A stretch of DNA of 64,000 nucleotides from Alphaproteobacteria bacterium (lineage in GTDB: Bacteria; Pseudomonadota; Alphaproteobacteria; SHVV01). Within the stretch, counting starts at the first letter, position 1; every line of letters starts with the position of its first letter. Shown here piece by piece: positions 43,718 through 50,835 of the stretch. The notes under the pieces are model-generated. The model ran no database searches. It worked only from the letters and a program-made list of their open reading frames with translations, and had not been told where the DNA came from. Both the position numbers and the translations under genes were made by a program. Location: contig OZ253470.1 in the NCBI GenBank assembly GCA_965261735.1, positions 1,920,001-1,984,000 of the forward strand, written 5' to 3'.

Positions 43718-43927
43718 CGGACGAGCTTTGTCAAGTTGACCGGATTCACTCCGAAATATCTGTAAATTGTCGATGGCTTCTCTACGCAATTTCAATGGCT
43801 TGGCCTCATGGAGAAATGCCGAAAACAGCCTACAATCAGTTAACTTGATGGTATGGACGCCCCCTACGGCTTCACGATGAGCCATACTGGAGTGTGTTGA
43901 ACAACCCAGACAGAGGGAGCGTCCACG

Positions 43928-44947
43928 ATGGATATTACGACAATTGGGTTTGATCTGGCAAAGACGGTGTTCCAGGTTCACGGTGCTGATGGTGAGGGAC
44001 GACCGGTACTACGGCGGAAGCTGCGCCGCGGGAAGGTGCTGGCGTTCTTCGCCGGATTGCCATCCTGTCTTGTCGGTATGGAAGCCTGTGCCTCTGCGCA
44101 CTATTGGGCTCGGGAACTGCAAGCACACGGGCACAAAGTTCAGCTGATTCCGCCTCAATACGTTCGTCCCTTCGTCAAAACGAATAAGAACGACGCAGCG
44201 GATGCGGAAGCGATCTGTGAGGCAGTGACGCGTCCGACGATGCGCTTTGCACCGGCGAAAAGCGCCGAGCAGCAGTCGGTTCTGATGCTGCACCGGGCCC
44301 GAGAGCTGTTGGTCCGTCAACGCACGATGGTGATCAATGCGCTTCGCGGCCACTGTGCGGAGCTCGGACTGATCGTCGCTCAAGGGGCGTCGAAGGTGGA
44401 GGAACTGGTTGCCATCATCGAAGATCCCGGCGATGTGCGACTGCCGCCTCTGGCACGCGAGGCGCTTGGCTCTCTGGTTGAGCAGCTCCGTTCTGCTCAG
44501 GCCCGGATCAAGCAGCTGGAAGTGACGCTTTTGGCATGGCACCGCTCCAACGAGGCGAGCCGCCGTCTTGCGACGATCCCCGGCGTCGGTGTCATCACCG
44601 CGACGGCGCTGGTCGCGACGATCGGCGATGGCGCACAGTTCCGCTCGGGCCGACAGCTTTCGGCCTGGCTCGGTCTCGTGCCCCGGCAGCACTCGAGTGG
44701 CGGCAAGGATAGACTGGGACGGATATCGAAGCGCGGGGATGGCTATATCAGGCGCTTGCTCGTGCATGGTGCGCGAACCGTGCTGCGCTGGCGCCGCGCC
44801 AAGCCGGGCACGGGGCCTGGCTGGACCGACCGGCTCCTGGCGCGGCGGCCGACAAACGTGGTGCTGGTCGCCATGGCCAATAAGGCAGCCCGTGTCGCCT
44901 GGGCACTGCTCAGGTACGAGCGTATCTACCGACCGACGCCGGCATAG
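43928..44947 (+). CDS. IS110 recombinase/transposase
   Basis: GFDLAK, MEAC, KNDAADAEAI (DEDD), IPGVG, GLVPRQHSSGGK, ANKAARVAW. Confidence 0.95.
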   Translation: MDITTIGFDLAKTVFQVHGADGEGRPVLRRKLRRGKVLAFFAGLPSCLVGMEACASAHYWARELQAHGHKVQLIPPQYVRPFVKTNKNDAADAEAICEAVTRPTMRFAPAKSAEQQSVLMLHRARELLVRQRTMVINALRGHCAELGLIVAQGASKVEELVAIIEDPGDVRLPPLAREALGSLVEQLRSAQARIKQLEVTLLAWHRSNEASRRLATIPGVGVITATALVATIGDGAQFRSGRQLSAWLGLVPRQHSSGGKDRLGRISKRGDGYIRRLLVHGARTVLRWRRAKPGTGPGWTDRLLARRPTNVVLVAMANKAARVAWALLRYERIYRPTPA

Positions 44948-44959
44948 CCAGCTGGCAAA

Positions 44960-45160
44960 CCGGGATCAAATTGCGAGGGTGACGACGATTTGATGGCGAA
45001 ACAGGGTTCCACCCGAGATCGGCCAAACCCGAGGCATTGTCCGAGCATCAAGCTCGTTAGTCTGACTGGGCGTCGATCTTTCGGATTCCATCAGGGCCAG
45101 CGGTCAGCGTACCGCAGCGAAAAGGCCGGATACATGACTGCAAGCTCTACCGCCGATTCA
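44960..45160 (+). ncRNA. predicted bridge/seek RNA in the IS1111 right non-coding end (boundaries approximate)
   Basis: Loop segments match target (GGCATTGTC 45033-41, TTAGTCTGAC 45057-66) and donor junction (CCATCA 45088-93, ATACATGA 45130-37), each pair flanking a hairpin. Confidence 0.8.
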
Positions 45161-45199
45161 AATCAGTTTTCCCCTTGCAACACCGGGGGCGTCCATACA

Positions 45200-48009: not shown

Positions 48010-48600
48010 TCAATTCTCGCCTCCGCCGGCTCCGGAAGCGGGGGTGCCGATGTGATGGCGGTTCAGCAACGGCAGCTGGGTCAGAATGAACAGGAAGGTC
48101 AGCCCCATGATGCCGAACACCTTGAAGCTTACCCAGAAATCGGTGCTCTGGGTACGCCAGACCGCTTCGTTGAGGAGCGCCATCGCGACGAAGAAAATTC
48201 CGAAGCGGAAGGTGAGCCGGCGCCAACCTTCGTCGTTCATCTGCCAGGCCGCGCCGAGGACCGGCTTGAGGAGGGAACGCCTGAAGGCGAGCCCGCCCAG
48301 CAATACGGCCGCGATCAGCCCCTGCACGATGGTCGGCTTGAGCTTGATGAAGGTCTCGTCGTTGAGCCAGAGGGTGAGGCCGCCGAAGACGCCGACCACC
48401 CCGGCGGTGATCAGCGGCATCAGCGGCACCCGCCGGCTGACAGCGTAGGAAAGCGCGAGCGCGGCCGCGGTGGCGATCATCAGTGCGGCGGTTGCGGTGA
48501 TCAGGTCGAAGAGGACATAGGCACCGAAGAAGACCACCAGGGCGCCGTACTCGGTAACGGGTTTGACGGCCCGGTTCCGTTCGCTTGTCGTGGTCGGCAT
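48010..48600 (-). CDS. ispZ: septation protein A / inner-membrane protein YciB
   Basis: EYGALVVFF, VFGGLTLWLNDETFIKLKPT, GWRRLTFR, LNEAVWR, WVSFKVFG. Confidence 0.9.
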   Translation of the reverse strand: MPTTTSERNRAVKPVTEYGALVVFFGAYVLFDLITATAALMIATAAALALSYAVSRRVPLMPLITAGVVGVFGGLTLWLNDETFIKLKPTIVQGLIAAVLLGGLAFRRSLLKPVLGAAWQMNDEGWRRLTFRFGIFFVAMALLNEAVWRTQSTDFWVSFKVFGIMGLTFLFILTQLPLLNRHHIGTPASGAGGGEN

Positions 48601-48609
48601 CGGCGACTA

Positions 48610-49332
48610 GTGGATAAGATCTGACATTTGAATCCCGAGGGGGATTCCTGCCGGACTCTCTGTGTGCGAGTCTGGCTCATGCGCCCAGGAATCAGCATCA
48701 TCTTGAGCCCTGCCGACCGTCGTCGTCTGGAGGCGCTCGTCGAGGACCGCAACGTCGCCCAGAAGCATGTTTGGCGCGCACGGATCGTACTGCACAGCGC
48801 TGATGGCATCGGCACCAATGGGATCATGCGCCGGACCGGCAAGTCGAAGACCTGCGTCTGGCGCTGGCAGGAGCGCTTCGCCCAAGAGGGCTACGACGGT
48901 CTGCTGCGCGACAAGACACGGCCATCGCGCATCCCGCCGCTCGGCCCGGAGGTGGCCGAGCGGGTGGTCGCCCTGACGCTGAGCGACCCGCCCGCCGAGG
49001 CGACCCACTGGGTCGCCGCCATGATGGCCAAGGCGACCGGCATCAGCGTCAGCTCGGTGCGGCGCATCTGGCGCGCACACGGGCTTCGGCCGCATCGGGT
49101 GCGGCAATTCAAGCTTTCGAACGATCCCGACTTCGTCGCCAAACTGCGCCATGTGGTCGGGCTCTACGTCGACCCGCCGGCCCACGCCATCGTGCTCTCG
49201 GTCGACGAAAAGTCGCAGATCCAGGCGCTCGACCGCACCCAGCCCGGCCTGCCGATGAAAAAGGGCCGTCTTGGCACCATGACCCACGACTACAAGCGGC
49301 ATGGCACGACCACCCTGTTCGCCGCCCTCAAC
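48610..49332 (+). mobile_element. IS630-family element, 3'-truncated
   Basis: Left end after [43 protein letters not shown] then breaks. Confidence 0.85.
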
Positions 49333-49481
49333 GGAGTCGGGCGGGCACCGCGTCCGGTCCACGCTCCATTCGCCTTCGGCGGACATAGCAAACAGTCGCT
49401 GCGCGAGGAGAACGGTCGTCTGGGCGCACTGCCGAGTCACGAACTGGTGTCGGCTACGTGGATACGTTGCGGGCATTGTCA

Positions 49482-50835
49482 TGTATGGACGCCCCCGGTG
49501 TTGCAAGGGGAAAACTGATTTGAATCGGCGGTAGAGCTTGCAGTCATGTATCCGGCCTTTTCGCTGCGGTACGCTGACCGCTGGCCCTGATGGAATCCGA
49601 AAGATCGACGCCCAGTCAGACTAACGAGCTTGATGCTCGGACAATGCCTCGGGTTTGGCCGATCTCGGGTGGAACCCTGTTTCGCCATCAAATCGTCGTC
49701 ACCCTCGCAATTTGATCCCGGTTTGCCAGCTGGCTATGCCGGCGTCGGTCGGTAGATACGCTCGTACCTGAGCAGTGCCCAGGCGACACGGGCTGCCTTA
49801 TTGGCCATGGCGACCAGCACCACGTTTGTCGGCCGCCGCGCCAGGAGCCGGTCGGTCCAGCCAGGCCCCGTGCCCGGCTTGGCGCGGCGCCAGCGCAGCA
49901 CGGTTCGCGCACCATGCACGAGCAAGCGCCTGATATAGCCATCCCCGCGCTTCGATATCCGTCCCAGTCTATCCTTGCCGCCACTCGAGTGCTGCCGGGG
50001 CACGAGACCGAGCCAGGCCGAAAGCTGTCGGCCCGAGCGGAACTGTGCGCCATCGCCGATCGTCGCGACCAGCGCCGTCGCGGTGATGACACCGACGCCG
50101 GGGATCGTCGCAAGACGGCGGCTCGCCTCGTTGGAGCGGTGCCATGCCAAAAGCGTCACTTCCAGCTGCTTGATCCGGGCCTGAGCAGAACGGAGCTGCT
50201 CAACCAGAGAGCCAAGCGCCTCGCGTGCCAGAGGCGGCAGTCGCACATCGCCGGGATCTTCGATAATGGCAACCAGTTCCTCCACCTTCGACGCCCCCTG
50301 AGCGACGATCAGTCCGAACTCCGCACAGTGGCCGCGAAGCGCATTGATCACCATCGTGCGTTGACGGACCAACAGCTCTCGGGCCCGGTGCAGCATCAGA
50401 ACCGACTGCTGCTCGGCGCTTTTCGCCGGTGCAAAGCGCATCGTCGGACGCGTCACTGCCTCACAGATCGCTTCCGCATCCGCTGCGTCGTTCTTATTCG
50501 TTTTGACGAAGGGACGAACGTATTGAGGCGAAATCAGCTGAACTTTGTGCCCGTGTGCTTGCAGTTCCCGAGCCCAATAGTGCGCAGAGGCACAGGCTTC
50601 CATACCGACAAGACAGGATGGCAATCCGGCGAAGAACGCCAGCACCTTCCCGCGGCGCAGCTTCCGCCGTAGTACCGGTCGTCCCTCACCATCAGCACCG
50701 TGAACCTGGAACACCGTCTTTGCCAGATCAAACCCAATTGTCGTAATATCCATCGTGGACGCTCCCTCTGTCTGGGTTGTTCAACACACTCCAGTATGGC
50801 TCATCGTGAAGCCGTAGGGGGCGTCCATACCATCA
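49482..50835 (-). mobile_element. IS110-family (IS1111 group) element, copy 2, inverted relative to copy 1
   Basis: Near-identical reverse complement of 43846-45199; same ends and same bridge-RNA region. Confidence 0.92.
49734..50753 (-). CDS. IS110 recombinase/transposase
   Basis: 339 aa; differs from copy 1 at two visible residues (P/S, L/F). Confidence 0.95.
   Translation of the reverse strand: MDITTIGFDLAKTVFQVHGADGEGRPVLRRKLRRGKVLAFFAGLPSCLVGMEACASAHYWARELQAHGHKVQLISPQYVRPFVKTNKNDAADAEAICEAVTRPTMRFAPAKSAEQQSVLMLHRARELLVRQRTMVINALRGHCAEFGLIVAQGASKVEELVAIIEDPGDVRLPPLAREALGSLVEQLRSAQARIKQLEVTLLAWHRSNEASRRLATIPGVGVITATALVATIGDGAQFRSGRQLSAWLGLVPRQHSSGGKDRLGRISKRGDGYIRRLLVHGARTVLRWRRAKPGTGPGWTDRLLARRPTNVVLVAMANKAARVAWALLRYERIYRPTPA

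Follow-up and report, generated by a model that had tools for sequence, protein, structure and literature searches.

The window analysed here is a stretch of 64,000 nucleotides from the genome of an Alphaproteobacteria bacterium (contig OZ253470.1, positions 1,920,001 to 1,984,000). It contains two copies of an insertion sequence (IS) of the IS1111 family, inverted relative to each other and together spanning 43846-50835. The interval between them is filled by debris of other insertion sequences. Downstream of its transposase gene the element carries a non-coding region in which a guide RNA (seekRNA or bridge RNA) can be predicted, with target guides that appear to be set to the terminal inverted repeats of IS6-family elements. 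We give this overall reading a probability of roughly 0.88. The features on which it is built are the following, in window positions.

39964-40109, strand not assigned: unoccupied copy of a short IS6-ended repeat, 146 bp, both tips TGACAATGCT, inverted.
43713-43845, plus strand: body of the short IS6-ended repeat, resembling a miniature inverted-repeat transposable element, in which copy 1 lies; the left half-target TTAACT forms its final 6 bases; left limit approximate.
43846-45199, plus strand: element copy 1, IS1111 family, 1354 bp, one core TGA being counted within the left end.
43846-43864, plus strand: left end, 7-bp extension TGATGGT (containing the core TGA) followed by the 12-bp subterminal inverted repeat 43853-43864, after the convention of PMC11187229 as excerpted.
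43928-44947, plus strand: DEDD transposase gene, 339 aa, with GLVPRQHSSG at residue 249.
44971-45181, plus strand: conserved structured core of the predicted guide RNA, inside the 252-nt non-coding region 44948-45199.
45033-45041, plus strand: target guide T, GGCATTGTC, complementary to the top strand of the right half-target (core GA plus CAATGCC).
45042-45056, plus strand: hairpin between the target guides, CGAGC (45042-45046) with GCTCG (45052-45056), showing compensatory changes in relatives.
45057-45066, plus strand: target guide B, TTAGTCTGAC, identical to the left half-target TTAGTC plus core plus one base.
45088-45093, plus strand: predicted donor segment CCATCA, complementary to the left end of the element (core plus TGG), invariant among relatives.
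45095-45127, plus strand: hairpin between the donor segments, GGCC/GGCC and an inner stem with compensatory changes.
45130-45137, plus strand: donor segment ATACATGA, identical to the right end of the element plus core, varying with the right end in relatives.
45175-45180, plus strand: TTGCAA, read from the sequence as a possible -35 box of a promoter that would be completed only in the excised circle.
45185-45199, plus strand: right subterminal inverted repeat (45185-45196) and 3-bp extension ACA.
45200-45209, plus strand: core and right half-target of copy 1, TGACAATGCC, which is the outer tip of the IS6-type end of the host repeat; the left flank of copy 1 reads GTTAACT.
49472-49481, minus strand: core and right half-target of copy 2, TGACAATGCC on the element strand.
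49482-50835, minus strand: element copy 2, IS1111 family, 1354 bp, 4 bases unlike copy 1.
49734-50753, 49640-49648 and 49615-49624, minus strand: transposase gene, guide T and guide B of copy 2.
50836-50842, minus strand: left half-target of copy 2, TTTACTC on the element strand, in a remnant resembling a transposase-proximal IS6 end.

The transposase matches PF01548 (52.3 bits), PF02371 (98.5 bits) and NF033542, 'IS110 family RNA-guided transposase', the latter with 348.8 bits against a cut-off of 140. Its C-terminal domain (residues 211-329) aligns with the solved transposases of IS621 and ISCro4 (E 3.9e-11, about 4e-11). According to the accessible text of PMC11187229, IS1111 elements are set apart from IS110 by subterminal repeats, extensions of 7 and 3 bp, a downstream non-coding region and a GL-P----S(t)G motif. 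All of these are found here: a DEDD transposase in the range of 330-350 aa with a RuvC-like N-terminal and a PF02371 C-terminal domain, repeats of approximately 11-13 bp, 7+3 extensions, a longer non-coding sequence downstream of the gene (252 nt) than upstream of it (82 nt), and the motif in the form GLVPRQHSSG. The subterminal inverted repeats (43853-43864 and 45185-45196) measure 12 bp, or 14 bp when two more bases are counted. In every testable family trait of its sequence the element fits the published IS1111 seekRNA elements, and the IS1111-type identity proposed in the preliminary description of this DNA stands. Membership of the IS110 group proper (e.g. IS621) was considered and rejected, as the non-coding region lies downstream and the repeats are 12-14 bp long, rather than an upstream RNA being combined with very short repeats.

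The four bases that distinguish copies 1 and 2 all lie outside the segments checked, namely guide T, the hairpin, guide B, CCATCA and the right-end segment. The coordinates and strings previously listed for the copies, guides, hairpin and flanks were each present in the sequence. Across the 5.03-Mb genome, five full copies were found at ≥ 99.5% identity, together with one variant at 93% and several copies interrupted by other elements. All five full copies retain an open 339-aa frame and identical target guides, hairpin and donor segments, and we regard the element as an active-looking IS1111-family insertion sequence. The shared core TGA stands at all 21 junctions genome-wide (12 left and 9 right). 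Nine of nine right junctions have at most one mismatch to CAATGCC and eight of twelve left junctions at most one to TTAGTC. The ideal target, which had been predicted from the RNA alone, is recovered exactly as the genome-wide flank consensus: TTAGTC, core TGA, CAATGCC. Contigs from other samples add further left flanks ending in CCAGTTAGTC.

Within the target, the matches to guides T and B overlap at the core TGA, with the complement of the top strand located 5' of the match to the bottom strand. This is the order reported for IS1111 seekRNAs in the accessible text of PMC11187229, and the guide layout of the preliminary description was upheld, both in the positions of the named segments and in their order. 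Relatives of the element comprised 80 related loci from other genomes (56-99% protein identity) and three plasmid loci, from which 16 different elements were aligned to compare guides, flanks and structure. The 252-nt non-coding region folds with z = -3.1 relative to shuffled sequences. The consensus structure derived from the alignment has 37 pairs, which are 98.3% paired, against 27-47% in slid controls. Nine pairs are altered on both sides, compared with 4.3 ± 1.3 in shuffles, of which 0 of 500 scored as high.

In the mechanism that we propose, the 3' non-coding region of the element would encode a seekRNA or bridge RNA, which would be made and bound by the transposase. One loop of this RNA would carry two short guides: the 5' guide would pair with the top strand of the right half-target and the 3' guide with the bottom strand of the left half-target. 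The guides would overlap at the core TGA as the place of strand exchange, and a second pair of segments would match the joined ends of the element in the same manner, presumably with a circle as intermediate. Guides set to bases 1-16 of the IS6 terminal inverted repeat would therefore impose a single landing orientation, with exchange at bases 8-10. In the insertions themselves, the strand-exchange position corresponds to bases 8-10 of the IS6 repeat and the left end of the element always faces the IS6 interior.

Both target guides change together with their own flanks across the 16 aligned elements, and the stem of the hairpin between them changes by compensatory pairs. Thus guide CAAACCGTC accompanies flank GACGGTTT in L075, GTGCTGTC accompanies GACAGCAC in L057 and GGCACTGTC accompanies GACAGTGCC in L064. 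Among the left guides, TTAATC occurs with flank TTAATC (L040), TTAATG with TTAATG (L063) and CGGTGA with CGGT(A/G)A (L072 and L075). Distant relatives (L087, L091, L110 and L119-L121) carry unrelated guides at the same two positions, each matching its own flanks. When flanks were shuffled among 40 unique guide/flank sets, the 362 matching positions observed (expected 187 ± 16) were reached by 0 of 10000 shuffles. Reducing the sets to 25 guide pairs, each represented once, left 223 matches against 111 ± 12 in shuffles, and again 0 of 10000 came up to the observed value. Nineteen of 71 loci were dropped from this test as their ends were not parsed by the rule. For the distant clades the register is shifted by two bases; their scores are lower as a result, and the test is biased against the guide reading. 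For 15 of the 16 relatives, the right-end donor segment (ATAC, ATAG, AGAT or ACAT) tracks the element's own right end. The covariation check proposed earlier was hereby passed by both target guides and the right-end donor segment, which covary with flanks or element end, and by the stems with their compensatory changes.

These data bear on the alternative that the transposase protein chooses the target and that the matching non-coding segments are relics of captured target DNA rather than guides. It would accommodate occupied sites that tolerate up to six mismatches. We nevertheless consider it hardly credible: the matching segments are divided and reordered as is typical for seekRNAs, the stems that enclose their loop show compensatory changes, segments and target vary together in no fewer than 25 different guide pairs, and the RNA is essential in the published relatives, as stated in the accessible text of PMC11187229. 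The relatives form a natural series, with transposases of 56-99% identity, in which both target guides and one donor segment can be read against their DNA partners. Such a series is useful for defining the pairing rules and mismatch tolerance of IS1111-type RNAs, which are less studied than those of IS621.

In a tree of 49 transposases, a branch of 23 rows with 100/100 support holds 15 of the 16 rows scored as targeting IS6 tips; the remaining one is the Microvirga element L114. A Hoeflea lineage (L075-L082 and L107) nested inside the IS6-targeting clade has been retargeted, with both guides rewritten. Its target is a conserved repeat (left ...ATTCGG, right CGGTTTAC...) that adjoins ordinary genes (DUF1349, GNAT), and no transposase was found beside the target repeat of this subgroup. 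The plasmid relatives (60-64% identity; Agrobacterium, Rhizobium and Sinorhizobium) also have other targets.

The targets in the genome under study are IS6-family ends. A small number of repeat families account for the left flanks; all share one tip and are repeated elements with IS6-type tips. An intact IS6 element (L031, 141-946) of 806 bp is present three times in this genome and has a 231-aa open reading frame (ORF) whose product matches NF033587 with 232 bits (cut-off 125) and PF13610 with 130.9 bits. Its terminal repeats begin with GGCATTGTCA and GGCGTTGTCA, and its ends read GGCGTTGTCACGTTAAC and GGCATTGTCACGTTAAC. Another IS6 element, in L053, reaches 173.5 bits with NF033587. The repeat hosting copy 1, of approximately 130-146 bp and with IS6-type tips, occurs in at least 11 further places, 39964-40109 being an unoccupied one. 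The two unoccupied sites reported in the window were found as described, as both ends of the repeat 39964-40109 read TGACAATGCT in inverted orientation; an 8-bp target duplication was looked for around this repeat and none was found. Copy 2, like most of the other copies, is inserted in what remains of a second IS6 type, which is intact in related genomes; the sequence flanking copy 2 is similar to the transposase-proximal ends found next to full IS6 genes in L045 and L049. No transposase gene is left at either occupied site in the window. The left end of the element is present in 35 related loci. In 15 of them an IS6 transposase gene ends 12-116 bp (mostly 45-47 bp) away from it; nine of these genes align over ≥ 190 aa and both gene orientations occur. 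The proposed IS6 nature of the target was confirmed in two ways, as the intact IS6 element of this genome ends in it and insertions of relatives adjoin IS6 transposase genes.

Several observations weigh against the reading of an RNA-guided element programmed for IS6 ends. The first concern the target. An adjacent IS6 gene is missing from 20 of the 35 related loci, and two of the 35, L084 and L094, have other targets. The occupied targets in this genome are short repeats and remnants, never an intact IS6 element. The 10-mer TGACAATGCC occurs 15 times in the genome, several of them outside recognisable IS6 ends. One could argue from the loci lacking an IS6 gene and from the frequency of the 10-mer that the 16-base sequence recognised is merely common and that IS6 ends are incidental rather than the natural target. 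We consider this very improbable, since all flank families here are repeats with IS6-type tips, one of them an intact IS6 element, and since the IS6 gene lies at a near-constant distance, in either orientation, in 15 related loci from several species.

The second group concerns the fit between guides and targets. Occupied sites carry between 0 and 6 mismatches of 13 relative to the guides; the poor fits are the genomic sites 2942630 (6 mismatches of 13) and 3147587 (4) and copy 1 itself (3), and comparable sites stand empty. Base pairing alone does not predict occupancy. The suggestion that a GCC versus GCT difference explains occupancy failed: no insertion is found at site 338842 on the minus strand, which shares all 16 bases of the copy 1 target, nor at three intact IS6 ends reading TGACAATGCC, and occupied sites span the full range of mismatches just given.

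The third group concerns the RNA. A search of 38000-52000 against Rfam 15 with permissive filters gave no match, and the RNA is therefore defined here by comparison only. RNAalifold pairs CCATCA (45088-45093) with an invariant TGATGG at 44992-44997, in six pairs that show no variation in the 16 relatives. This TGATGG, inside the non-coding region, duplicates the left end of the element, and its pairing with CCATCA could be an RNA stem or a self-masking of the donor guide. Because CCATCA is invariant in relatives and has this alternative partner, its donor role stays a candidate. RNA ends, transposase binding and a circle junction were not observed in the public runs, which were contigs only.

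These public data consist of four runs, all as assembled contigs, a form in which rare molecules are dropped. Neither a right-to-left end joint (circle) nor a precise empty site for copy 1 is listed in the contigs of the four runs, which counts neither way. One DNA contig skips 43768-45221, the content in between being unread. In the contigs of three RNA libraries, word depth is higher over the non-coding region than over the gene; such depth cannot rank the parts and DNA may be present. In an RNA-library contig of run X17, an end of the intact IS6 type (...GTTAACGTGACAATGCC) is joined directly to the element from 45068, just past guide B. This contig may be an assembly chimera formed via the similarity of guide and target, or a real rearranged copy.

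TTGCAA (45175-45180) is located 17 bases ahead of a hexamer that would be composed of the last two and the first four bases of the element, an arrangement suggestive of a promoter spanning the junction. According to the accessible text of PMC11187229, both the IS110 and the IS1111 family are known to have such junction promoters. TTGCAA is kept in 13 of 16 relatives and could alternatively pair with 44971-44977.

What the insertions mean for IS6 elements is a separate matter. Site-specific insertion into repeats is usually read as the use of a harmless landing pad and vehicle. By the same RNA-guided mechanism, IS6 ends could be just that, with no meaningful suppression of IS6, and this is a serious possibility to which we give somewhat less than even odds. 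It is consistent with the state of this genome, where the intact IS6 types exist in multiple copies and without insertions, and with nine related loci in which a full-length IS6 gene persists beside the insertion. The geometry points the other way, as an insertion places 1354 bp between the outer 7-10 bases of the IS6 repeat and the remainder. It is plausible from this geometry that insertion splits the repeat, disables that IS6 end and so immobilises it. Also opposed to the harmless view is that the IS6 type that best fits the guides is present here as fragments only, with 6 of 7 recognisable ends occupied, whereas the intact types, which deviate from the guides at 3-6 positions, carry no insertion; this pattern is a correlation, which age alone could produce. 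For the element, IS6 ends would offer a safe, multi-copy and mobile landing site. A more far-reaching and rather unlikely extension is that the whole alphaproteobacterial IS1111 clade is an RNA-guided hyperparasite of IS6, with guides that track the divergence of the repeats and drive matching lineages to decay. If true, the pattern of occupied fragments and empty intact types would reflect a natural arms race in which two transposon families contend by means of a programmable RNA.

Insertion of IS1111 relatives into the ends of other transposons is known, and the mechanism is not new. IS4321 and IS5075 (accessible text of PMC11187229 and PMC11208160) likewise belong to the IS1111 family, have subterminal repeats and are reported to enter terminal inverted repeats of other transposons at a single position and in a single orientation. 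The repeats that they use belong to Tn21-family (Tn3-type) transposons, whereas those used by the present element belong to the IS6 family, a contrast drawn from descriptions. IS1383 of Pseudomonas putida H is described as inserting specifically within the inverted repeats of IS1384 (PMC11208160, in part) and is cited as an IS1111-type element in the accessible text of PMC11187229; it differs, again by description, in the host IS (IS1384) and in the organism.

ISEc11, ISKpn4, ISPst6 and ISPa11 share with our element a transposase of 330-350 aa, a downstream non-coding region and 7+3-bp extensions. They also have an RNA of 70-100 nt, a top-strand complement 5' of the bottom-strand match, overlapping matches and natural reprogramming. 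They insert at a linear site, at attC sites and in REP sequences, and the RNA of the present element is predicted from sequence (all from PMC11187229 as excerpted). IS621 (PMC11208160, in part; structure 8wt6 and others) has a DEDD recombinase and target and donor loops that each read both strands around a core, but its RNA lies upstream, its guide order is reversed, its subterminal repeats are short and its core has 2 bases; only the C-terminal domain can be aligned with our transposase by sequence.

A full-text search by literal term matching, outside which most subscription journals lie, found no literature on an IS1111/IS110 relative that targets IS6 ends; ISfinder and the target logos of PMC11187229 (> 300 entries) could show one. 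IS6 ends as a target class seem undescribed, and would join the short list of transposon ends sought by IS1111 relatives. As IS6 elements are major gene movers in bacteria, an RNA-guided system at their ends offers a start for asking whether one transposon family restrains another.

The surroundings of the two copies hold further elements. Two ORFs, 42833-43717 and 45210-45574 on the minus strand, flank copy 1. A ParB N-terminal domain is recognised in both, at E values (2.8e-6 and 1.1e-5) that lie right at the Pfam cut-off, and the ORF at 45210-45574 is apparently truncated by the short IS6-ended repeat that hosts the copy. Two neighbouring features occupy 47140-47615 and 47620-47754. One is a sequence that ends in a subterminal repeat of the GGGGGCGTCCACATA type, preceded by a segment like the donor part of the RNA, and that looks like the right end of a different IS1111 relative. 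Adjoining this putative right end is a fragment of the IS6 type of which L053 holds an intact element; it covers the N-terminal residues 3-47 at 89% identity. Beside the right flank of copy 2, 48628-49330 contains a fragment with the helix-turn-helix domains PF13565, PF13384 and PF13551, of the sort usually seen at the N-terminus of transposases; on visual inspection it looks similar to an IS630-type transposase.

Elsewhere in the genome, G000:C1:2942630-2944362 holds a full copy of the element followed directly by a partial copy that starts at element position 977, an arrangement that could reflect partial duplication in tandem or the insertion of one copy into another. The left flank at 2942630 has the worst guide fit of all sites. 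Three further copies (G000:C1:3095510-3098957, 3802228-3805131 and 4283135-4286649) are split by other insertion sequences. One of the splitting elements, of 1541 bp, is present at least seven times, and the genome is very rich in nested insertion sequences.

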